Shown: positions 15,680-26,714 of the stretch, one piece after another
Position numbering within the stretch: the first letter of the stretch is position 1
Layout: each line of letters starts with the position of its first letter
Assembly: GCA_052387955.1 (NCBI GenBank)
Contig: JBQTIQ010000011.1
Coordinates: 3,602-67,601, forward strand
Direction: 5' to 3'
Length of the DNA stretch: 64,000 bases
Source of the DNA: Acidimicrobiia bacterium
GTDB lineage: Bacteria; Actinomycetota; Acidimicrobiia; Acidimicrobiales; JACDCH01
Notes under the pieces: model-generated
What the model saw: the letters and a program-made list of their open reading frames with translations, nothing else
Told to the model about the DNA's origin: nothing
Databases searched by the model: none
Made by a program: the position numbers and the translations under genes

Positions 15680-18193
15680 ATGGGCACCGACCGCACGATC
15701 CTGGTCGTCGGCCACGGCATGGTCGGCCACCGGTTCCTCGAAGCCGCGGTCGAGGCCGGCCTGCACCTCGCCCATCACATCGTCGTGGTGGGCGAGGAAC
15801 CCCGGCCCGCCTATGACCGCGTCCACCTGTCCTCGTTGTTCGACGGGATGTCCGCCGACGACCTGCGCCTGGGCTCGCCGACCTTCGCCGCAGAGCACGG
15901 CATCGAGGTGCGTTCGAACGAGGTCGTCGTCGCTCTCGACACCGCGGGCCGCCGCGCCACCACCTCCGCCGGTGCCGTGCTCCTTTACCACGAGTGCGTC
16001 CTGGCCACCGGGTCGTACCCGTTCGTTCCCCCCGTCCCCGGTATCGAAGCCGCCGGCAGCTTCGTCTACCGCACCATCGAAGACCTCGACGCCATCCGGG
16101 CCTGGTCCACCGGCTGCCGCACCGGGGTCGTGGTCGGCGGGGGCCTCCTCGGGCTGGAGGCGGCCAACGCGTTGCGGCTGCTCGGCCTCGACACCACCGT
16201 CGTCGAGTTCGCCCCCCGCCTCATGGCGGTCCAGCTCGACGACGGCGGCGGACGGGCCCTACGCCGCCACGTCGAGGCGCTCGGCCTGCACGTCATCACC
16301 TCGGCCGGCGCCAGCGCGGTGCTGACCACCCCCGACGGCCGGGTCGAAGGGCTGCGCTTCGCGGAGACCTGCGACCGGCCCGACCTCGCCGCCGACATCG
16401 TGGTGTTCGCCGCCGGCATCCGCCCTCGCGACGAGCTGGCCCGCCAGGCCGGCCTCGAGGTGGGCGAACGGGGCGGCGTGGTCATCGACGACCGGGGCGC
16501 GACCTCGGCCGCCGGCGTGTGGGCCATCGGCGAGGTCGCGGCCCACGCCGGCCGCTGCTACGGCCTCGTCGCCCCTGGCTACAAGATGGCCGAGGTCGTC
16601 GCCGACCGCCTCGCCGGCGGCACCGCCACCTTCGAGGGCGCCGACACCAGCACCACGCTCAAGCTTCTCGGCGTCGACGTCGCGGTGGCCGGTGACCCTC
16701 ACGGCGCCGGCGACGAGGTGGTCTTCGCCGACCCGGTCGCCGGCGTCTACAAGAAGCTGGTCCTGGGCCCCGACGGCGCCATCACCGGCGCGGTGCTGGT
16801 CGGCGACGTCTCCGCCTACCCCGCCCTGGTGCAGTACTGCCGGGGCACGCTGGCATCCCCGGCCGCCCCCGCCGCCCTGGTCGCACCGGCGGGCTCGGGC
16901 GTGGCGCTGCCCGGGCCGGCCGACCTGCCCGACGAAGCGACGATCTGCTCCTGCCACAACGTGACCTGCGGGGCCATCCGCTCGGCGGTCAGTGCCGGCG
17001 CCGAGACGCCGGTGGCGGTGGGCGCCGCCACCAAGGCGGGCACCGGCTGCGGGAGCTGCGTCCCCCTGGTCTCCGAGATGGTCGACGCCGGCCTCGCCGC
17101 CGCCGGCAGGACCGTGATCGTCCGGTTGTGCGAGCACTTCGCCATGAGCCGCCAGGAGCTCTTCGACGTGGTGCGCGTCACCGGCATCCGCACCTTCGCC
17201 GAACTGGTCGGGCGCCACGGCAATGGGCGGGGCTGCGCCATCTGCAAGCCGGCGGTGGCGTCGATGTTCGCGTCGCTGGCATCGGGCCACGTGCTCGACG
17301 GCGAGCAGGCGTCGCTGCAGGACACCAACGACCACTTCCTGGCCAACCTCCAACGGGACGGCACGTACTCGGTGGTGCCCCGGGTGCCCGCCGGTGAGAT
17401 CACCCCCGACGGCCTCATCGCCATCGGTGAGATCGCCCGTGATTTCGACCTGTACACGAAGATCACCGGCGGCCAGCGCATCGACATGTTCGGTGCCCGC
17501 GTCGAACAGCTGCCCGAGATCTGGCGCCGCCTCATCGGCGCCGGATTCGAGTCGGGCCACGCCTACGGCAAGGCGCTCAGGACGGTCAAGTCATGTGTCG
17601 GCTCCACCTGGTGCCGGTTCGGGGTGCAGGACTCGGTACAGCTGGCGATCGACCTCGAGCTCCGTTACCGGGGCCTACGAGCGCCCCACAAGATCAAGTT
17701 GGCGGCGTCGGGCTGCGCCCGGGAATGTGCCGAAGCGCAGAGCAAGGACGTCGGTGTCATCGCCACCGAGCGGGGCTGGAACCTCTACGTCGGCGGCAAC
17801 GGCGGCATGCGCCCGGTCCACGCCCAGCTCCTCGCCGAGGACCTCGACACCGAGACCCTCTTCCGCTTCGTCGACCGGTTCCTCGCCTACTACATCCGTA
17901 CCGCCGACCGCCTCGAGCGCACCGCCACCTGGCTGCGCAAGCTGCCCGGCGGCGTCGCCCAGGTCAAGCGGGTGGTCGTGGACGATGCCCTCGGGATCGG
18001 GGCCGACCTCGAAGCCGACATCGCCCGCCATGTCGAGAGCTACGAGTGCGAGTGGAAGGCGACCCTCGACGACCCGATGCGCCTCGCCCGTTTCGCCACC
18101 TTCGTCAACAGCGACGAGGGCGACCCCACCCTGGCCTACGTGCGGGTGCGGGGCCAACGCCAGCCCGTGGAGATCGTGGGAGCCCGGCCATGA
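15680..18193 (+). CDS. nirB: NAD(P)H-dependent nitrite reductase large subunit
   Basis: 837 aa. N-terminal FAD/NAD Rossmann folds (VVGHGMVGHRF), BFD-like 2Fe-2S Cys pairs, and a sirohaem/4Fe-4S C-terminal domain (SCVGSTWCRFG, ASGCARECAEA). Confidence 0.95.
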   Translation: MGTDRTILVVGHGMVGHRFLEAAVEAGLHLAHHIVVVGEEPRPAYDRVHLSSLFDGMSADDLRLGSPTFAAEHGIEVRSNEVVVALDTAGRRATTSAGAVLLYHECVLATGSYPFVPPVPGIEAAGSFVYRTIEDLDAIRAWSTGCRTGVVVGGGLLGLEAANALRLLGLDTTVVEFAPRLMAVQLDDGGGRALRRHVEALGLHVITSAGASAVLTTPDGRVEGLRFAETCDRPDLAADIVVFAAGIRPRDELARQAGLEVGERGGVVIDDRGATSAAGVWAIGEVAAHAGRCYGLVAPGYKMAEVVADRLAGGTATFEGADTSTTLKLLGVDVAVAGDPHGAGDEVVFADPVAGVYKKLVLGPDGAITGAVLVGDVSAYPALVQYCRGTLASPAAPAALVAPAGSGVALPGPADLPDEATICSCHNVTCGAIRSAVSAGAETPVAVGAATKAGTGCGSCVPLVSEMVDAGLAAAGRTVIVRLCEHFAMSRQELFDVVRVTGIRTFAELVGRHGNGRGCAICKPAVASMFASLASGHVLDGEQASLQDTNDHFLANLQRDGTYSVVPRVPAGEITPDGLIAIGEIARDFDLYTKITGGQRIDMFGARVEQLPEIWRRLIGAGFESGHAYGKALRTVKSCVGSTWCRFGVQDSVQLAIDLELRYRGLRAPHKIKLAASGCARECAEAQSKDVGVIATERGWNLYVGGNGGMRPVHAQLLAEDLDTETLFRFVDRFLAYYIRTADRLERTATWLRKLPGGVAQVKRVVVDDALGIGADLEADIARHVESYECEWKATLDDPMRLARFATFVNSDEGDPTLAYVRVRGQRQPVEIVGARP

Positions 18194-18663: not shown

Positions 18664-20142
18664 ATGACGCTGCTCGAGCCGCTGGCGCTGGAGTCGACAC
18701 CGGTCACGATCGGGCGGGCGCCGACGCCGGCTCTCGGCCGGAACAAGACCGGCATCGGTGAGAACGGCCCGGACCTGCTGCCTCTCGACGCCGGCGAGCA
18801 GTACCGCTTCGGGTTCTCAATGGAGTCCTGCATCGGGTGCCACTCCTGTGAGGTGGCCTGTGCCGAACAGAACGGGCTGCCGGCCGGGACCGCCTGGCGG
18901 CGGGTGGGCGAGATCGAGGGGGGCCAGCATCCCGACACCCGCCGCTGGCACCTGTCGATGTCGTGCAACCACTGTCTCGACCCCGCCTGCCTCGACGGCT
19001 GCCCGACCAAGGCCTACGAGAAGCTGCCCAACGGCATCGTCGAGCATCATGCCGACGACTGCATCGGATGCCAGTACTGCACCTGGAAATGCCCGTACTC
19101 GGTGCCGGTGTTCCAGCCCGACCGGCGCATCGTCACCAAGTGCGACCTGTGCGCTCCCCGCCTGGGCGCCGGGCTCAAGCCGGCCTGTGTGGACGCCTGC
19201 CCGACGCACGCCATCACCGTCGAGAAGGTGAACGTGGCCGAGTGGCGGGCCGATCACCGCGCCGGCGACGCCCCCGAGCTCCCCTCCGCCGACATCACCT
19301 TGTCGACCACCCGGATCGAGCTCCCCCGGGACCTGCCCGCCGACGCTGCCGCCGCCAGCGACTGGGACCTGCGCCCCGAGCACCCGCACTGGCCGCTGGT
19401 GTGGCTCACGCTGCTCACCCAGGCCGCGGTCGGGACCAGCGCCACCGGCCGCTACACCGGCTCGGGCCCGGTGGCCATCGCCGCCGCCCTCCTCGCCGGT
19501 ATCGGCCTGGCCGGTTCGCTGCTGCACCTGGGCCGCCCCGCCCTGGCCTGGAAGGCACTCCGCAACCTGCGCCGCTCGTGGCTGTCACGGGAGGTGGCCC
19601 TGTTCGGCGCCTACGCCGCGGTGGCCGCCCTCAACGGCGCCGTCGTCATCTTCGCCGGCGAGCCTTCGCCCGGTCTGGGGACGGCCGCCACCGCCATTGG
19701 GCTGGCCGGCGTCTACGCCTCCGGCCGGCTCTACGTGGTGCCGGGGCGCCCGGCGTGGGACACGCCCATCACCATCGGCGCCTTCCTCGCCACCGGTGCC
19801 GTCCTCGGCCCGATGATGGCGGGCCAGCCCGCCATCTCGGTCGGCGCGGTCGGGTTCCAGCTCCTTCTCCTGGGCGCCAACCTGGCTCGGTTGAGCCGGC
19901 GCCGGGACCGGGCCTGGCGGGGGACGGTGCACCTCTACCTCCACCGGTTCGGCCGGGCGACATCGATGCGGGTGCTCCTGGCGCTGGGCGGCGCCGCCCT
20001 CGCCCTGGTCGGGAACCCCCTGGCGACCCTCGCCGCGGTGGTGGCGGTGGCCATTGCCGAGCTCCTGGGGCGGTGGCTGTTCTACGTCACGGTGGTGCCG
20101 CTCAACATGCCCGGCAGCTTCTGGCGGCAGGGGGCGCGTTGA
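18664..20142 (+). CDS. Fused 4x[4Fe-4S] ferredoxin (DmsB/NrfC-like) and DmsC-like 8-TM membrane-anchor protein
   Basis: Four cluster motifs: CIGCHSCEVAC, CNHCLDPACLDGCP, CIGCQYCTWKCP, CDLC...CVDACP. These are followed by about 8 TM helices with LHLGRPALAWKALRNLRRSWLSREV, a DmsC/YnfH-like signature. Confidence 0.8.
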   Translation: MTLLEPLALESTPVTIGRAPTPALGRNKTGIGENGPDLLPLDAGEQYRFGFSMESCIGCHSCEVACAEQNGLPAGTAWRRVGEIEGGQHPDTRRWHLSMSCNHCLDPACLDGCPTKAYEKLPNGIVEHHADDCIGCQYCTWKCPYSVPVFQPDRRIVTKCDLCAPRLGAGLKPACVDACPTHAITVEKVNVAEWRADHRAGDAPELPSADITLSTTRIELPRDLPADAAAASDWDLRPEHPHWPLVWLTLLTQAAVGTSATGRYTGSGPVAIAAALLAGIGLAGSLLHLGRPALAWKALRNLRRSWLSREVALFGAYAAVAALNGAVVIFAGEPSPGLGTAATAIGLAGVYASGRLYVVPGRPAWDTPITIGAFLATGAVLGPMMAGQPAISVGAVGFQLLLLGANLARLSRRRDRAWRGTVHLYLHRFGRATSMRVLLALGGAALALVGNPLATLAAVVAVAIAELLGRWLFYVTVVPLNMPGSFWRQGAR

Positions 20143-22460
20143 AGTCGCCGAGGGCCAGGGCGACGGCGCAGGCGGCGGCCCGCAAGCCTGCCCTCAAGCC
20201 GCTGAACGACTTGATGCCCCGGGGCATCCCCCGGCCCAACCAGCGCCAGCGGTTGGCGGCCAAGGTGGCCGAACACGCCGAGCGCTACAAGATCGGCCGC
20301 TTCCTGGGACTCGACCACGGCGAGGAGAGGTACCACTTCGGCCGCGACGACGTCTTCGGCCCCATGCATGCGGCCAAGGTCCCCGACCGGTGGGTCAAGA
20401 CGACCTGCGGCTACTGTTCGGTCGGGTGCGGGATGCTGGTGGGCATCCGCAAGGGCGAGGCAGTGACGGTCCGCGGCGATCCCGACCACCCCGTGAACCG
20501 TGGCCGCCTGTGCCCCAAGGGTTGCTCCGAGCACCTCACGTTGCGCGCCCCGGGGCGGCTGACCGAACCGCTGGTCGACGGCCAGCCGGCGACCTGGGAC
20601 GCCGCCCTCGACCGGATGGTCACCGGGTTCCGAGACCTCGTCGACCGCTACGGGCCCGAGTCGGTGGCGGTCCTGTCGACCGGCCAGCTGGTGACCGAGG
20701 AGTTTTACGCGCTGGGCAAGTTGGTGCGCCTCGGCATGGGCCTGGCCCACTTCGACGGCAACACCACGCTGTGCATGGCCAGCGCGGTGTCGGGCTACAA
20801 GCTCAGCTTCGGCACCGACGGCCCACCCGGCTGCTACGAGGACCTCGACCTGGCCGACGTGGTGGTGCTGTGGGGCGCCAACATCGCCGACAACCATCCG
20901 CTCCTCGCCCCCCGGGTGCTCGACAACCAACGGGAACGGGGTGCGACGGTGATCGTCGTCGACCCCCGGGTGACCAAGACAGCCCAGTTCGCCGACCTGC
21001 ACCTGCCGGTCAAGCCCCGTACCGACGTCATCCTGCTCAACGGGCTCATCAAGCTCCTCGTCGACGAGGGCTACGTCGACCTCGATGCGGCCCGGGCCCA
21101 CGTGGAGGGCCTCGACGCCCTGCTCGAGCACGTCCAGCAGTACCCCCTCGAACGGGTGGCCGAGGAATGCGGCCTGCCGGCCCCCGACGTGATGGCCATG
21201 GCTCGCGCCATCGGGCAGGCCGGGGCGGCCACCGTGGCCTGGACGATGGGCGTCAACCATTCGGTGCAGGGGACCGAGACCGTCACGCTGCTCAACACCC
21301 TGTGCGTACTCACCGGCAACGTCGGCCGTCCCGGGGCGGCACCGTTCTCGATCACCGGCCAGTGCAACGCCATGGGCACCCGGGAGTCGGGCTTCACCGC
21401 CTCGATGCCCGGCTACCGCGCCTTCGACGACCCGGCGCACCGGGCCGAGCTGGCGGCGTTGTGGGGCATCGACGAGTCCCGCCTCCCCACCGAGCGGGGC
21501 CGGGCCTATCCCGACATCGTCAACGCCATCGCCAGTGGCCGCATCAAAGGCCTGTGGGTGATCGGCACCAACCCGGTCGTGTCCTTCCCCAATCGCGAGA
21601 CGCTCGAGTTCGCCCTCGGGCGCCTCGAGCTGCTGGTGGTCCAGGACGGCTTCGAGACGCCCACCACCGAGCGCGCCGACGTGGTGCTGCCCGCGGCGAT
21701 CTGGGGGGAGAAGAGCGGCACCTTCACCAACAGCGAGCGGCGAGCCAGCCCGGTGCGGGCGGCCGTGGGCCCCATCGGCAAGGCCCGCACCGATTTCCGC
21801 ATCTTCCTCGACGTCGCCGAGCGGTGGGGCTGTCGAGACGAGCTGTTCCGGGACTGGACGACGCCGCGGCATGCCTGGGACGAGTGGCGCACGGTCTCCG
21901 CCGGGCGCCCCTGCGACTACAGCGGCGCTTCGTGGGAGCGGATCGAGGCGGCCGGCGGCGTGCAGTGGCCCTGCCCGGCCGACGACGCCGACCTCGCGCT
22001 CGGGGGTACCCCCCGCCTCTACACCGACCTGCGGTTCAACCGCCCCGACGGCCGGGCCGCGCTCCGGGTGGTCGCGCCGGCGCCCTTCACCGACGAGCCC
22101 GGACGCGACTTCCCGTTCGTGCTCAACACCGGCCGCACCGTCGAGCACTGGCACACCCGGACGAAGACCGGGCGCATCCCCATCCTCGAGGCCATGGCTC
22201 CCGAAGCGTGGGTCGAGATCAACCCGGGCGACGCCGCCGCGCTCGGAGTCCGCTCCGGCGACCTGGTCCGCATGGTGTCCGAGCGGGGCGCGGTGGACCG
22301 CATCCGGGCCCGGGTGACGGCCATCGTGCGCCGGGGCGAGGTCTTCGTCCCCTTCCACTGGGACGAACGGTGCGCCAACCGCCTCACCAACGACGAGTTC
22401 GACCCGATCAGCCGCGAACCCAACTACAAGCAGTGCGCCGTACGGGTCGAGAAGGTGTGA
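20139..22460 (+). CDS. Molybdopterin oxidoreductase, assimilatory nitrate reductase (NasA/NarB-like)
   Basis: N-terminal 4Fe-4S CGYCSVGCG...CPKG, MGD-binding blocks, and a C-terminal FVPFHWDE..ANRLTN..DPISREPNYKQCAV. The start is either TTG 20139 (TTGA overlap with the upstream stop) or ATG 20214. No Tat signal. Confidence 0.85.
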   Translation: MKSPRARATAQAAARKPALKPLNDLMPRGIPRPNQRQRLAAKVAEHAERYKIGRFLGLDHGEERYHFGRDDVFGPMHAAKVPDRWVKTTCGYCSVGCGMLVGIRKGEAVTVRGDPDHPVNRGRLCPKGCSEHLTLRAPGRLTEPLVDGQPATWDAALDRMVTGFRDLVDRYGPESVAVLSTGQLVTEEFYALGKLVRLGMGLAHFDGNTTLCMASAVSGYKLSFGTDGPPGCYEDLDLADVVVLWGANIADNHPLLAPRVLDNQRERGATVIVVDPRVTKTAQFADLHLPVKPRTDVILLNGLIKLLVDEGYVDLDAARAHVEGLDALLEHVQQYPLERVAEECGLPAPDVMAMARAIGQAGAATVAWTMGVNHSVQGTETVTLLNTLCVLTGNVGRPGAAPFSITGQCNAMGTRESGFTASMPGYRAFDDPAHRAELAALWGIDESRLPTERGRAYPDIVNAIASGRIKGLWVIGTNPVVSFPNRETLEFALGRLELLVVQDGFETPTTERADVVLPAAIWGEKSGTFTNSERRASPVRAAVGPIGKARTDFRIFLDVAERWGCRDELFRDWTTPRHAWDEWRTVSAGRPCDYSGASWERIEAAGGVQWPCPADDADLALGGTPRLYTDLRFNRPDGRAALRVVAPAPFTDEPGRDFPFVLNTGRTVEHWHTRTKTGRIPILEAMAPEAWVEINPGDAAALGVRSGDLVRMVSERGAVDRIRARVTAIVRRGEVFVPFHWDERCANRLTNDEFDPISREPNYKQCAVRVEKV

Positions 22461-22537: not shown

Positions 22538-23731
22538 GTGCGAACGAAAGGAGCGCTTCAGGGCGACGACGCCAAGCCCAGCGCCCCGGGTGGCGACGGA
22601 GCTCAGCCGCCCAGAGACACGGCGACGGCGTCGCTCGCCGGCTTCACGGTCGGGATCACCGCCGACCGGCGGTGGGACGAACAGGCCGCCCTCTTCGAGC
22701 GTCGGGGGGCGTCGGTCCAGCACGGGCCGACCATCCGGACCGGTCCTCTCCCCGGCGACGGCCAGCTCCGGGACGTCACCGAGTCGATCATCTCCCAGCC
22801 CCCCGACGTGCTGGTGGCCAACACCGGCATCGGGATCCGTTCCTGGTTCTCGGCCGCCGAGAGCTGGGGACTCGACGCCGAGCTGCTCCGGGCGCTGTCG
22901 GCGGCCACCATCCATGCCCGCGGCCCGAAAGCGTCGGCTGCGGTCGTGGCCGTCGGCCTACCGGTCGCCAGCCGGGCCGGTACCGAACGCCTGCGCGAGG
23001 CGATCGACCTCGTCCTCGAGGACGCCCCGGCGCCAGGCACGGTGGTCGCCGTCCAGCTCGACGGCAGCGGCGCCAGCGACGAGGTCGGGCGCCTGCGGGC
23101 GGCCGGGGTCGTCGTGGTCGAGGTGCCGCCCTACGTGTGGACGATGCCGGCCGACCCCAGACCGGCATTGCGCCTGGCCGACGCCGTCATCAGCGGACGC
23201 GTCCACGCGGTGACGTTCACGGCCGGGCCGGCAGCACGCAACTTGCTGGCGCTGGCCGACGAGCACGGCCGTCGCGACGAGTTGGTCGACGCCCTCGCCG
23301 GCATCGTCGTCGGCTGCGTCGGGCCGGTGTGCGCCGAGGCCGCCCGCGACGCCGGCATCTCCCCCGCAGCCGTGGTCGTGCCGGCCCGGGCCCGTCTGGG
23401 GCCCCTGGTACGGGCCGTGGGTGACGCCCTCGAAGCCCGGGAGGTCCACGTGCCCTCCGGGGCCGGCCGCCTCACGCTGCGGGGCACCAGGCTCCAGTCC
23501 GACGACCACGAGGTCGACCTCACCGACGTCGAGGCCCGCCTCTTCGCGGCCCTCGCCCGCCGGCCCGGCGCCGTCCTGTCCAAGCCCGCCCTGTTGCGGG
23601 AAGTGTGGGGCGACGCCGGCGGCGACCCCCATGTCGTCGAGGTCACCGTGTCGCGGCTCCGCCGGCGCCTGGGCCCCCATGGCCGGGTGGTTACCGCGGT
23701 GCCCCGCCGCGGCTACATGCTCCAGACCTGA
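22538..23731 (+). CDS. nnaR: HemD-like domain fused to OmpR-type winged helix (NnaR-type nitrate/nitrite assimilation regulator)
   Basis: Frame of track ORF 20054..23731. Uroporphyrinogen-III-synthase-like body plus a C-terminal trans_reg_C segment (EARLFAALARRPGAVLSKPALLREVWG...VEVTVSRLRRRLG). The start is uncertain; GTG 22538 is the only classical start after the nasA stop. Confidence 0.75.
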   Translation: MRTKGALQGDDAKPSAPGGDGAQPPRDTATASLAGFTVGITADRRWDEQAALFERRGASVQHGPTIRTGPLPGDGQLRDVTESIISQPPDVLVANTGIGIRSWFSAAESWGLDAELLRALSAATIHARGPKASAAVVAVGLPVASRAGTERLREAIDLVLEDAPAPGTVVAVQLDGSGASDEVGRLRAAGVVVVEVPPYVWTMPADPRPALRLADAVISGRVHAVTFTAGPAARNLLALADEHGRRDELVDALAGIVVGCVGPVCAEAARDAGISPAAVVVPARARLGPLVRAVGDALEAREVHVPSGAGRLTLRGTRLQSDDHEVDLTDVEARLFAALARRPGAVLSKPALLREVWGDAGGDPHVVEVTVSRLRRRLGPHGRVVTAVPRRGYMLQT

Positions 23732-23800
23732 CGCCTTTCGCCCCGGCCCGGTCCGGCCGATCCGCCTGCGTCGCGGCCCGCCCCAACCTGGGCCGGACGC

Positions 23801-23851
23801 GCTTCTGGCGCCGGCCAGGCCGCATGTGCGGCACGGACCGACGCCAGAAGC
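23801..23851. terminator. Nested hairpins in a convergent gap
   Basis: GCTTCTGGCG...CGCCAGAAGC is a 10-bp perfect stem enclosing the palindrome GCCGCATGTGCGGC. It lies between the nnaR stop and the stop of the repeat-protein gene. Confidence 0.3.
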
Positions 23852-23876
23852 AGGCGTTCTTCGCCTTAGGGGCTCG

Positions 23877-25697
23877 CTACAGGATCCCACCCAGGCCGAG
23901 CAGGCCACCCCCGTCGTTGTCGTCGTCGGTCAGGCCCAGGGCCTCGAGCAGCCCGTCGATGAGGCCGTCATCGTCATCATCGTCGTCACCGAAGAGGATG
24001 CCATCGAGGAGCCCGTCACCGTCGCCGTCGCCCAGGAGCCCGTCGAGGAGCCCGTCACCGTCGTCGTCGCCCAGGATCACGCCCAGGATCCCGTCGCCCC
24101 CGAGGATGCCGTTGTCCTCGCTGTTGCCGTCGTCCTCGATGAGCCCGGGCTCGCCGAGCACCAGGTCGACCACATCGTCGACCAGGCAGATGACCACGCC
24201 GAGGAGCCCGTCGGGCGGGTTGCACGGGTTGTCGACCGTGGTCTCCTCCCGGCCCGGCCCCGCCGGTGCGCAGTCGGGATCGAACTGGTCGGTGGAGCCG
24301 TCGCCGTCGTTGTCGACACCGTCGAAGCAGGACCGGTTGTCCCGCGATTCCCGTCCGGGACCGGCCGGGTTGCAGTCGGGGTCGTCGAAGTCACGGAGCA
24401 GGTCGCCGTCGTTGTCGACGCCGTCGTAGCAGTTGCTGTTGTCCCGGACTTCGTTGCCCGGCCCGCCCGGCTGGCAGTCGATGTCGGCTGCGTCGGCCCG
24501 GAAGTCGCCGTCGTTGTCGAGCCCGTCGGCGCAAGGCCCAGGCGGGGTCACTTCGGCGCCGGGACCACTCGGCGTGCAATCGGGGTCGGCGTCGTCGAAG
24601 GCGCCGTCACGGTCGTTGTCGATCAGGTCGAAGCAGGTCCGGTTGTCCCGGTTCTCCCGGCCCGGCCCGCCGGGCTGGCAGTCGAGGTCGTCCTGGTCGG
24701 TGCGGTTGTCGCCGTCGTTGTCGATGCCGTCGGCGCACTGGGGGCCCACCTGGGGGGTGGTCTCCTGGCGGCTACCGCCGGGCTGGCAGTCGGGGTCGGC
24801 ACCGTCGAGGAAGCCGTCGTTGTCGTTGTCGAAGCCGTCGAAGCAGGAACGGTTGTTGACCTGCTCGACGCCGGAACCGCCGGGCTGGCAGTCCGGGTCG
24901 GCGGCATCGGTACGACCGTCACCGTCGTTGTCGATCCCATCGGCGCAGGGCCCCGGCGGCGGCGGCGGGGTCGACTCGCGACCAGCGGCGTTGGGCCGGC
25001 AGTCGAGGTCGGCGGCGTCGGTGGTGCCGTCAGCGTCGTTGTCGACACCGTCGAAGCAGTTCCGGTTGTCACGGTTCTCGGTGCCCGGGCCACCGGCCTG
25101 GCAGTCGAGGTCGGCGGCATCGGTACGACCGTCACCGTCGTTGTCGATCCCATCGGCGCACGGCCCCGGCGGCGGCGGCGGCGGGGTGACCTCACGGCCG
25201 GGGCCGCCCGGCAGACAGTCGCCGTCGGCGCCGTCGACCTGGCCGTCACCGTCGTTGTCGAGGCCGTCGAAGCAGGTCCGGTTGTCGGTGTTCTCGACGC
25301 CGGGACCACCCGGCTGACAGTCGAGGTCGGCGGCGTCGACCCGGCCGTCACCGTCGTCGTCGAACCCATTGGTACAGCTCTGCACCGGTGTGGGACTGCC
25401 TTCAGCCCCCATGCCACCGGGGCGGCAGTCGCCGTCACGTTGGTCGCGCAGGTTGTCGCCGTCGTTGTCGAGGCCGTCGAAGCAGGTCGAGTTGTTGTGC
25501 TGCTCGACGCCGCTGAAGCCGGGCTGACAGTCGAGGTCGAACTGGTCCGTCCGGCCGTCGACGTCGTTGTCGATGCCGTCGAAGCACGTCGGGTTGTTCT
25601 GCGGGTCGATGGCGGCGGCGGACCGCAGGCCCGCTCCCAGAGAGCCGATCAAGGTCAGCGATAGGAGTATCGCCATGAGGGAACGGCGTCGACGCAT
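23877..25697 (-). CDS. Secreted hyper-acidic repeat protein (13 Cys-bracketed Asp-rich modules plus a D/G/L-rich tail)
   Basis: 606 aa. Signal peptide MRRRRSLMAILLSLTLIGSLGAGLRSAAA. Thirteen copies of C-x-D-G-x-D-N-D-x-D-G-x2-D-x2-D-x-D-C joined by PGGPG/Pro-rich linkers. The last ~130 aa are almost only D, G and L. Confidence 0.8.
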   Translation of the reverse strand: MRRRRSLMAILLSLTLIGSLGAGLRSAAAIDPQNNPTCFDGIDNDVDGRTDQFDLDCQPGFSGVEQHNNSTCFDGLDNDGDNLRDQRDGDCRPGGMGAEGSPTPVQSCTNGFDDDGDGRVDAADLDCQPGGPGVENTDNRTCFDGLDNDGDGQVDGADGDCLPGGPGREVTPPPPPPGPCADGIDNDGDGRTDAADLDCQAGGPGTENRDNRNCFDGVDNDADGTTDAADLDCRPNAAGRESTPPPPPGPCADGIDNDGDGRTDAADPDCQPGGSGVEQVNNRSCFDGFDNDNDGFLDGADPDCQPGGSRQETTPQVGPQCADGIDNDGDNRTDQDDLDCQPGGPGRENRDNRTCFDLIDNDRDGAFDDADPDCTPSGPGAEVTPPGPCADGLDNDGDFRADAADIDCQPGGPGNEVRDNSNCYDGVDNDGDLLRDFDDPDCNPAGPGRESRDNRSCFDGVDNDGDGSTDQFDPDCAPAGPGREETTVDNPCNPPDGLLGVVICLVDDVVDLVLGEPGLIEDDGNSEDNGILGGDGILGVILGDDDGDGLLDGLLGDGDGDGLLDGILFGDDDDDDDGLIDGLLEALGLTDDDNDGGGLLGLGGIL

Positions 25698-25765: not shown

Positions 25766-25794
25766 TCTCTAACAGACCAGATGGGCCAGGTCAA
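25766..25794 (-). promoter_or_regulatory. Candidate promoter of the repeat-protein gene
   Basis: On the minus strand, TTGACC (25789-25794) is followed by 17 nt and then TAGAGA (25766-25771), about 70 nt upstream of ATG 25697. The region is locally lower in G+C. Confidence 0.3.
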
Positions 25795-25922: not shown

Positions 25923-26714
25923 TCACGCGGCCGCCATCGCGTCCTCGGTGAGGAGGCGGAGCAGACGGGCCTGGACGTCCTTGAACCCGGGGTGGTCGAC
26001 GATCGAGACCCGGTCCCGGGGGCGGGGGACGTCGACGGTGATCACGTCGCGCACCGACGGGCCCGGCGGGTTGCTCATGACCACGATGCGGTCCGACAGG
26101 AGGATGGCCTCGTCGATGCCGTGGGTCACCATCACCACGATCTCGGTGTCCGACTCGTTCCCCCACAGCGCCACCAGCTGGGACTGCAACCGTGCCCGGG
26201 TCAGCGCGTCGAGGGCACCGAAGGGCTCGTCGAGCAGCAGGGCCCGCGGCTCGACGGCGAAGGCACGGGCCACTGCGGCGCGCTGGAGCATGTCCCCCGA
26301 CACCTGGCCGGGGCGCTTGTCCTTGTGCTCCCACAGGCCGACGGCGCTGAGGTAGCGCTCGGTGGCGGCGTCGGCCTGCTCGGCCGACCGGTCGGGACGG
26401 GCCGAGCGGGCCGCGATGCGGACGTTGTCGAGCAGGCTGAGCCGGGGCAACAGCGAGTAGTGCTGGAACACGACGGCCCGGTCCGGCCCCGGCCCGGTGA
26501 CGGGTTCGCCGTCGAGGGAGACCGTCCCGGAGTCGGCCCGGAGGAGTCCGGCGGCCACGTTGAGCAGCGTCGACTTCCCGCACCCGGAGTGGCCGATGAG
26601 AGAGACGAACTCGCCCGGTTCGACCGTGAGGTCGATACCCCGCAGGACCTGCTGGCGACCCTTGCGGTCACGCTGGGCGAAGGACTTGGTGATGCCCTGC
26701 AGTACCAAGCTCAT
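25923..26714 (-). CDS. Nitrate/sulfonate/bicarbonate-type ABC transporter ATP-binding protein (NrtD/NrtC-like)
   Basis: Walker A GHSGCGKST, Q-loop VFQH, signature VSGDMLQRAAVA, Walker B LLLDEPFGALD. Confidence 0.9.
   Translation of the reverse strand: MSLVLQGITKSFAQRDRKGRQQVLRGIDLTVEPGEFVSLIGHSGCGKSTLLNVAAGLLRADSGTVSLDGEPVTGPGPDRAVVFQHYSLLPRLSLLDNVRIAARSARPDRSAEQADAATERYLSAVGLWEHKDKRPGQVSGDMLQRAAVARAFAVEPRALLLDEPFGALDALTRARLQSQLVALWGNESDTEIVVMVTHGIDEAILLSDRIVVMSNPPGPSVRDVITVDVPRPRDRVSIVDHPGFKDVQARLLRLLTEDAMAAA

Follow-up and report, generated by a model that had tools for sequence, protein, structure and literature searches.

The 64,000-nucleotide stretch of DNA analysed here (the window) is part of contig JBQTIQ010000011.1 from an Acidimicrobiia bacterium (Actinomycetota) whose genome has a guanine plus cytosine (GC) content of 72%. 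It carries, on the minus strand at positions 23877 to 25697, a gene for a hyper-acidic protein of 606 amino acids, which we describe here. We consider that this is probably an exported protein with a structural role outside the cell, stiffened by bound Ca2+. The interpretation is based on 13 tandem, cysteine-bracketed modules that belong to the NCBIfam family NF033662 and whose profile, when searched against the PDB, gives significant matches to teneurins only. The gene, its predicted export signal and the repeat array are located as follows, the modules being read from the sequence unless other evidence is given.

23877 to 25697, minus strand: complete coding sequence, 606 amino acids plus stop, from the list of open reading frames (ORFs), GC content by codon position and the NF033662 match
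25611 to 25697, minus strand: predicted signal peptide, residues 1–29, MRRRRSLMAILLSLTLIGSLGAGLRSAAA followed by IDPQ, read from the sequence
24246 to 25586, minus strand: repeat array, residues 38–484, 13 units of the form C-x-D-G-h-D-N-D-x-D-G-x-x-D-x-x-D-x-D-C-x7-E, from the sequence and the AlphaFold2 predicted local distance difference test (pLDDT)
25527 to 25586, minus strand: module 1 (residues 38–57), CFDGIDNDVDGRTDQFDLDC
25425 to 25484, minus strand: module 2 (residues 72–91), CFDGLDNDGDNLRDQRDGDC, with Asn for the loop Gly
25317 to 25376, minus strand: module 3 (residues 108–127), CTNGFDDDGDGRVDAADLDC, the best NF033662 stretch by hidden Markov model (HMM)
25215 to 25274, minus strand: module 4 (residues 142–161), CFDGLDNDGDGQVDGADGDC
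25101 to 25160, minus strand: module 5 (residues 180–199), CADGIDNDGDGRTDAADLDC, preceded by a PPPPPPGP linker; 38.3 bits alone against NF033662
24999 to 25058, minus strand: module 6 (residues 214–233), CFDGVDNDADGTTDAADLDC
24888 to 24947, minus strand: module 7 (residues 251–270), CADGIDNDGDGRTDAADPDC, preceded by a PPPPPGP linker
24786 to 24845, minus strand: module 8 (residues 285–304), CFDGFDNDNDGFLDGADPDC
24678 to 24737, minus strand: module 9 (residues 321–340), CADGIDNDGDNRTDQDDLDC, with Asn for the loop Gly
24576 to 24635, minus strand: module 10 (residues 355–374), CFDLIDNDRDGAFDDADPDC
24474 to 24533, minus strand: module 11 (residues 389–408), CADGLDNDGDFRADAADIDC, with Phe for the loop Gly
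24372 to 24431, minus strand: module 12 (residues 423–442), CYDGVDNDGDLLRDFDDPDC, with Leu for the loop Gly
24270 to 24329, minus strand: module 13 (residues 457–476), CFDGVDNDGDGSTDQFDPDC, also present in a close relative, L003

The GC content at the three codon positions of the ORF is 0.75/0.48/0.885, compared with 0.73/0.47/0.94 in the neighbouring nrtD, and because this matches the coding pattern of the genome the ORF lies in the true coding frame. Overlapping ORFs in the other frames lack this signature. The 606 residues include 130 Asp, 103 Gly, 28 Cys and 32 Arg, with no Lys or Trp, and the predicted mature protein would carry a net charge of approximately −121. There is only one His and one Tyr, and the total avoidance of Lys in a predicted secreted protein is unusual. 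The N-terminus reads as a Sec-type export signal, probably cleaved after the AAA, and AlphaFold2 draws a helix through residues 2–17 of this region; it contains no lipobox Cys, and NCBIfam gives no Tat-signal HMM match.

Each of the exactly 13 modules spans 20 residues (C-x18-C), and they are separated by linkers of 14–18 residues. The initial annotation had described the 606-residue frame, the N-terminal export signal and the modules with their linkers in these terms, and the ORF list, the codon-position GC, the sequence of the N-terminus and a recount of the array all agree with it. At the DNA level the repeat has a period of 213 bp, equal to two modules, which reflects the alternation of two module subtypes. 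In type A, position 2 is Phe or Tyr and the preceding linker is rich in Asn and Asp (E-N-x-D-N-R-x), while in type B position 2 is Ala and the preceding linker is rich in Pro. Two further features had gone unmentioned: a Glu lies exactly 8 residues past the closing Cys in all 13 linkers, and the Gly of the DxDxDG loop is missing from 4 of the 13 modules. The number of Cys is even and all pairs are in register. The module motif occurs nowhere else in the window, in any frame or place.

The initial annotation considered the family of this protein unfamiliar, which does not hold, as NF033662, named “acidic double-disulfide repeat” (acid_disulf_rpt), covers the protein in 13 stretches with 228.2 bits (E 3.5e-69) against a curated cutoff of 41 bits. 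All 50 aligned homologues match the same model. Literature searches with the family name and with DNDGDG-type bacterial repeats returned no paper on NF033662 and nothing specific. The 2,748 proteins scored in a large database search all match through the repeat, at 35–45% identity; these are mostly metagenomic proteins of 900–1000 amino acids, and none has the C-terminal tail described below. Protein databases hold no exact or close full-length match, and exact look-ups of the protein with two alternative starts, as well as of the neighbouring NrtD, found none on record.

Across 935 homologue modules D6, D8, D10, G11, D14 and D17 are conserved at approximately 100% and position 13 is Ile, Val or Thr, so that the conserved core is a 12-residue DxDxDG loop with Asp at loop position 12. 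Of 107 homologues examined at the N-terminus, 56 have a lipobox-like sequence, and the median homologue has 190 residues ahead of the array and 231 behind it. The arrays are fused to subtilases and other proteases, nucleases and Ig-like domains, with no link to nitrogen metabolism. Their position between a lipid or membrane anchor and globular domains suggests that they act as scaffolds or spacers rather than in catalysis. Some homologues have C-termini rich in Asp, Gly and Leu, which on inspection are ordinary terminal modules. One module-like match (53% identity over 34 residues; L001:10001-10102, JALWQW010000025.1) comes from a metagenome-assembled genome (MAG) of Candidatus Micrarchaeota archaeon (DPANN), so the repeat may occur in archaea too, or the contig may be mis-binned.

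To relate the module to a known structure, a profile built from 93 modules was searched against the PDB. The only significant matches are teneurins: the C-rich domain of Ten-4 (7PLP, E 3.5e-7), further Ten-4 structures (7BAN and 7BAM, E 5.9e-5), Ten-2 (6CMX, E 1.7e-3), Ten-m (8FIA, E 2.6e-3) and several chains of Ten-3 (E 0.016). In the opposite direction, against the bacterial NF033662 model, the fragment of human Ten-4 reaches 34.9 bits (E 9e-9). The Ten-4 C-rich domain has been solved at 1.5 Å and contains a C838–C857 disulfide and three Ca2+ ions, held by E835, D840, D843, N844, D845, D847, D851, D854 and D856 and by carbonyls of the backbone; the arrangement of sites I and II is that of thrombospondin type-3 (T3) repeats, and that of site III is the one seen in LDLR-A modules (Meijer et al. 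2022, PMC9058538). If C838 is taken as position 1, the Ten-4 ligands map one-to-one onto module positions 3, 6, 7, 8, 10, 14, 17 and 19, and C857 onto position 20. From this correspondence of sequence the modules are very probably Ca2+-binding loops. Because the residues of teneurin sites I and II match module positions, we infer approximately two Ca2+ per module and 26 per protein.

The name of the family implies two disulfides per repeat, and the Cys preference of the model was read indirectly, by scoring synthetic variants of module 5 against NF033662. The native module scores 38.3 bits, falling to 25.7 when both native Cys are changed to Ala. Adding a Cys at position 15 raises the score by 3.8, to 42.1 bits. 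A Cys at position 26 gives 37.5 bits, 2.1–2.5 bits above Cys at 25 (35.0) or 27 (35.4), and the match then reaches the model's last position. Cys placed elsewhere costs 3–7 bits, as at position 13 (32.6), 16 (31.1) or 21 (34.7), or at position 9, the MopE-like arrangement (31.5, a loss of 6.8). These variant scores indicate that the model favours four Cys per repeat, at positions 1, 15, 20 and 26, which correspond to teneurin C838, C852, C857 and C863 and so to two of the three teneurin disulfides. The protein described here has two Cys per module where the family's two-disulfide pattern has four, and judged by sequence it is, like the homologues retrieved, a single-disulfide variant of the NF033662 family.

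Structure prediction is consistent with such loops. The full-length AlphaFold2 model (50-sequence alignment) has pLDDT values of approximately 80–86 in the modules and 60–68 in the linkers; in the tail they fall below 50, and the predicted template modelling score (pTM) is 0.27. A model of four modules (residues 128–275, 47-row alignment) has a mean pLDDT of 85, exceeding 90 within modules, and contains no helices or strands, only short turns at the module ends. Modules predicted as coil throughout are what would be expected of loops that wrap around ions. Neither the full-length nor the four-module model had any match when searched against the PDB with Foldseek, a result that is uninformative for coil-only units of 20 residues.

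We propose that the protein would work in four steps. After removal of the signal peptide, each module would form a short loop lacking regular secondary structure that wraps approximately two Ca2+, using Asp3, Asp6, Asn7, Asp8, Asp10, Asp14, Asp17 and Asp19 as ligands and a Cys1–Cys20 disulfide as a lock, while the invariant Glu 8 residues past Cys20 may add a ligand or complete a third site. The array as a whole would then hold approximately 26 Ca2+, or up to approximately 39 with the third site, and would become a Ca2+-dependent, semi-rigid, protease-resistant and strongly anionic filament of the bead-on-a-string kind, with the poly-Pro linkers as stiff spacers. By analogy with the architecture of the wider family the filament would serve as a spacer or scaffold; in this protein only a lineage-specific tail lies behind it, which may provide low-affinity Ca2+ binding and self-association or association with the envelope. 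The initial annotation had suggested an extracellular binder of divalent or trivalent cations with high capacity, or a matrix protein, and such a role is plausible.

Several points weigh against this interpretation. Of the teneurin features, disulfides two and three are absent and so is the third site of LDLR-A type, so the stoichiometry may differ, and the loss of the loop Gly in 4 of the 13 modules might weaken binding. There is no Foldseek match, which leaves the link in fold to be drawn from sequence alone, and the geometry between modules is poorly defined in both models (pTM 0.27 and 0.45). For the tail there is neither a template nor a confident model, amphipathic periodicity is lacking, and the role we propose for it is a guess.

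The tail comprises residues 477–606 and contains 30 Asp, 31 Gly and 25 Leu, with 11 tetrads of the form [D/N/G]-G-[I/L]-[I/L] and a run of seven Asp. Its parts are as follows.

24075 to 24269, minus strand: proximal tail, residues 477–541, including a hydrophobic and acidic stretch, LLGVVICLVDDVVDLVLGEPGLIEDDG; near-identical in a close relative
24186 to 24224, minus strand: a 14th Cys pair, C492-x11-C504, read from the sequence and absent from the initial annotation
23880 to 24074, minus strand: distal low-complexity tail rich in Asp, Gly and Leu, residues 542–606, ending in GGLLGLGGIL, conserved in frame in L003

AlphaFold2 places a low-confidence beta-hairpin at residues 502–513. The only hydrophobic window, residues 497–515, was considered as a transmembrane anchor and rejected, as it carries three Asp; the tail contains no LPXTG or LAXTG motif and its C-terminus has no basic residues. 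The earlier statement that the tail has neither a transmembrane helix nor LPXTG is therefore correct. An amphipathic-helix or beta periodicity was also rejected, being no better than in shuffled sequence. Pfam and NCBIfam, including the RTX-type Ca2+-responsive repeats, have no match within residues 477–606.

Searches with the tail alone found no relative among 5.8 billion clustered proteins or 1.84 billion representatives, although these searches also missed the fragment from a relative that is described next, which ends with its contig, and the products of genes cut in this way may be unindexed. Peptide patterns from the proximal tail found no relative in metagenome contigs of the Joint Genome Institute (JGI). 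A metagenome scan for the DNA pattern of the lineage-specific DCQPGGPGxE gave 11 loci, none with modules, and in a scan of reference genomes with the last repeat plus the tail there were two matches among those listed, both to the repeat only. That the tail was unfamiliar to the initial annotation thus agrees with the outcome of very large protein searches and of the JGI contigs.

The tail is however conserved in a close relative, whose NnaR is 92% identical and which is represented by seven short-read contigs (L003–L009; Logan DRR816603/04/05/09 and SRR15183924/30/32). In all seven a convergent gene follows directly past nnaR, and the contig ends 459 bp into it, inside the last repeat module. 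The fragment in L003 (L003:5583-6041) encodes a C-terminal piece of 152 amino acids with the same tail in frame. The proximal half of the tail (CNPPDGLLGVVICLVDDVVDLVLGEPGLI.DDGNSEDNGILGGDGILG) is almost identical. The distal Asp/Gly/Leu part has a 3-codon indel, its substitutions preserve the composition and the C-terminal GLLGLGGIL is retained; the most conserved part is the hydrophobic and acidic Cys-loop region at approximately residues 492–520. The alignment covers 149 codons, of which 112 are the same in both, with 20 synonymous and 17 non-synonymous differences. The intergenic DNA beside the tail in L003 is far more diverged than the tail codons, and with the in-frame conservation this establishes the tail as real, constrained coding sequence. 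Short-read assemblers evidently break on the repeat array, so that full-length proteins are likely to be missing from metagenome catalogues and the failure to find homologues carries less weight.

In more distant Acidimicrobiia the block nirB-nirD-Fer4/DmsC-nasA-nnaR is conserved with other genes past nnaR, so the gene is not among the conserved members of the nitrate system. In one of these (L010:10246-12850) the region past nnaR encodes two secreted-looking proteins of 437 and 446 amino acids without a Pfam domain, the first of which is an acidic protein whose C-terminal end is a Pro/Glu-rich repeat, with two copies of STPPTVPEEP. Named homologues of the NnaR in the window come from MAGs of Acidimicrobiia, Acidimicrobiales and Ilumatobacteraceae, at approximately 60% identity.

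The genomic setting within the window consists of the following features.

15680 to 18193, plus strand: nirB (Pfam)
18664 to 20142, plus strand: Fer4_11/DmsC-like protein (Pfam)
ending at 22460, plus strand: molybdopterin nitrate reductase (Pfam)
ending at 23731, plus strand: NnaR, HemD plus Trans_reg_C (Pfam)
23801 to 23851, minus strand: long GC-rich hairpin between the convergent stops of the gene and nnaR, from fold energy against shuffles
25766 to 25794, minus strand: TTGACC-17 nt-TAGAGA, a promoter-like element present in the sequence that fails the sigma-70 consensus criteria (weak evidence)
nrtD at 25923 to 26714, minus strand: part of nrtABD, an NMT1_2 substrate-binding protein, a permease and an ABC ATPase (Pfam)

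The gene is convergent with nnaR across a gap of 145 bp and has nrtD upstream on the same strand at 225 bp, and these Pfam-identified neighbours confirm the placement between nnaR and nrtABD, downstream of nrtD, that had been described. The Fer4_11/DmsC-like protein combines a 4Fe-4S dicluster domain with a DmsC-like membrane anchor in approximately 470–490 amino acids and lies between nirD and the assimilatory nitrate reductase. Its presence in an assimilatory nitrate cluster is unusual, and its gene order is kept across Acidimicrobiia (18664-20142 on the plus strand of the window, L003:412-1893, L010:5294-6709 and L011:5357-6742).

This setting raises the possibility that the protein serves nitrate assimilation, either by buffering Ca2+ in bulk or by controlling mineral formation. 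Uptake and reduction of nitrate consume protons and alkalinise the cell surface, where a hyper-acidic sponge produced along with nrtABD would capture Ca2+ and either prevent or template the precipitation of carbonate on the envelope. The extreme charge and Asp content of the protein and its position within a nirB-nirD-nasA-nnaR/nrtABD cluster are in keeping with this, and co-transcription with the transporter genes is possible. The initial annotation assigned the gene a promoter of its own, TTGACC-17-TAGAGA; the element exists, but its −10 hexamer, TAGAGA, lacks the final T, and a consensus scan for sigma-70-like promoters or intrinsic terminators at the gene found none. The RNA fold of the 225-bp gap is not significant (z 0.5), and with no significant structure between nrtD and the gene, read-through from nrtABD is as possible as transcription from its own promoter. 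Downstream, the segment at 23775–23880 has a fold energy of −67.9 kcal/mol (z = −4.6) that none of 200 shuffles reaches, and the arms of the 23801–23851 hairpin are partly conserved in L003; it is probably a terminator shared with nnaR, lacking a U-tract.

Against a link to nitrate, the distant Acidimicrobiia keep the cluster with other genes past nnaR, the upstream region of the gene shares no motif with the other promoter regions of the nitrate cluster beyond chance 9-mers, and the partner domains of the family elsewhere have no connection with nitrogen. We therefore regard this explanation as unlikely. A more elaborate version, to which we likewise give little credence, is a lineage-specific invention in which a teneurin/T3-type Ca2+ “wire” has been joined to a new C-terminal module, the Cys-loop with its Asp/Gly/Leu extension, that condenses or self-assembles when Ca2+ neutralises it. 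The outcome would be a Ca2+-gated layer outside the cell, acting as a matrix or in mineral control and expressed along with nitrate uptake as a response to surface alkalinisation.

It is also conceivable that the protein binds another metal, which could be copper, the metal of MopE, or a lanthanide, as in the case of lanmodulin. A resemblance to MopE had been pointed out in the initial annotation, and the literature offers some support, in that the alignment of the teneurin core by Tucker et al. (PMC3278476) included a diatom enzyme and the MopE copper motif. In our searches the MopE model PF11617 matches 6 of the 93 modules at sub-threshold scores, the best being 14.6 bits against a cutoff of 27, and the loss of score on introducing the MopE-like central Cys points the same way. 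Lanmodulin appears in the module-profile search of the PDB at E ~1, and the Pro at loop position 2 that is typical of lanmodulin is missing. The ligands are all carboxylates and amides, as suits hard cations, the protein has a single His and has Cys only in putative structural pairs, and the solved homologue binds Ca2+ (PMC9058538). We consider a metal other than Ca2+ quite improbable.

A calmodulin-like protein, with one Ca2+ per helix-loop-helix, is suggested by a four-module profile that matches calmodulin, troponin C and centrin in the PDB at E 1e-6 to 1e-4, matches that arise because four DxDxDG loops recur at a spacing of approximately 36 residues. However, AlphaFold2 predicts no flanking helices, so the similarity to EF-hands is at the level of the motif only, and the EF-hand models of Pfam match just 8 of the 93 modules, all sub-threshold. 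The Cys bracket, Asp3 and Asp19 are not explained by an EF-hand, whereas the teneurin/T3 mode explains them, and the protein is predicted to be exported and to be rich in disulfides. The chance that these are true EF-hands is in our judgement very small. The module spacing of approximately 34–37 residues nearly equals the EF-hand loop spacing of calmodulin and troponin C, which is a trap for automated annotation.

That the gene is a spurious or decaying ORF in GC-rich repetitive DNA, for which the long overlapping ORFs in other frames (747 amino acids on the plus strand, for example) and the lack of an exact or close full-length database match might be cited, is largely refuted by codon-position GC that is right in this frame only, the strong curated HMM match, the in-frame conservation in the relative with its in-frame indel and synonymous excess, and an even Cys count with every pair in register. 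The wrong-frame, stop-free ORFs that arise from the repeat DNA lie at 23421–25664 (plus strand), 24433–25317 (plus strand) and 24623–25438 (minus strand), the longest being an antisense ORF of 747 amino acids, and could mislead gene callers.

The Ca2+-stiffened structural protein that we favour has consequences beyond this one gene. The structure 7PLP provides a template, and approximately two Ca2+ per module a testable figure, for a very large, curated and uncharacterised family of bacterial repeats. The score of a human teneurin fragment on the bacterial model is only slightly below that of native modules, the positions of the second disulfide included, which bears on the origin of the C-rich domain, attributed by Tucker et al. 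(PMC3278476) to an algal donor. Being compact and free of other domains, the array of 13 modules would lend itself to work on how Ca2+ drives the folding of such a “wire”, as a minimal system. The Asp/Gly/Leu tail combines conservation with the absence of any detectable homologue. As short-read assemblies break inside this gene, metagenome catalogues probably contain too few of these proteins.

Comparison with known systems places the module closer to some than to others. The type-3 repeats of thrombospondin and COMP, of which Myxococcus CglD provides a bacterial example with a DxDxDG array, consist, like the modules as we interpret them, of Asp-rich, disulfide-stapled loops that wrap Ca2+ without secondary structure, but their Cys spacing and repeat length are unlike those seen here. 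The initial annotation had noted a resemblance to these repeats, and this stands in part: sites I and II of the teneurin template show T3 geometry, while a Pfam scan of the whole protein found nothing significant, TSP_3 and MopE included. PF02412 (TSP_3) gives no match at E ≤ 1 on the whole protein or at E ≤ 10 on the 93 single modules, PF18884 (TSP3_bac) reaches 2 of the 93 at sub-threshold scores (best E 0.034), and no thrombospondin or COMP chain is among the PDB matches of the single- and four-module profiles. MopE shares the core C-x-DG-x-DND-x-DG-x-x-D, but the central Cys of its DND-C-DG is missing from the module. With the EF-hands of calmodulin, dockerin and Excalibur the module has in common a 12-residue D-x-D-x-D-G-x-(I/V/T)-D-x-x-D loop and the calmodulin-like spacing, and differs in that the loop would be closed by a disulfide, lacks entering and exiting helices and has extra putative Asp ligands outside the 12 residues.

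Within NF033662 the core C-x-DG-x-DNDGDG-x-x-D-x-x-D-P-D-C is common to this protein and thousands of metagenomic proteins, many of which likewise alternate two repeat subtypes. It differs from the model in having Cys only at positions 1 and 20 of the favoured 1, 15, 20 and 26, and from other members in its array, which lies directly behind the signal peptide without a globular partner domain, in its linkers of the QPGGPG/poly-Pro type and in its unique tail. The host differs as well, being a member of the Acidimicrobiia, whereas the few named homologues are from Proteobacteria, Myxococcota, Bradymonadia, Bacteroidota and archaeal MAGs.

The closest structural counterpart is the teneurin C-rich domain, in which the C838–C857 segment has the same length, both Cys and the Asp and Asn positions of the module. 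Teneurins contain a single copy with six Cys in three disulfides (1–3, 2–5 and 4–6) and a conotoxin-like C-terminal half, whereas the bacterial array repeats the module 13 times in tandem, with two Cys in each and none at positions 15, 21, 26 or 32. The teneurin third Ca2+ site is LDLR-A-like with a Glu at position −3, while the Glu of the bacterial array lies 8 residues past the closing Cys. The repeat belongs to a curated family with a solved eukaryotic homologue and so is not categorically new; what is new is a variant with one disulfide per repeat, its occurrence in an actinobacterium, a minimal, “array only” architecture, the Glu kept in every linker and the orphan, conserved Asp/Gly/Leu tail.

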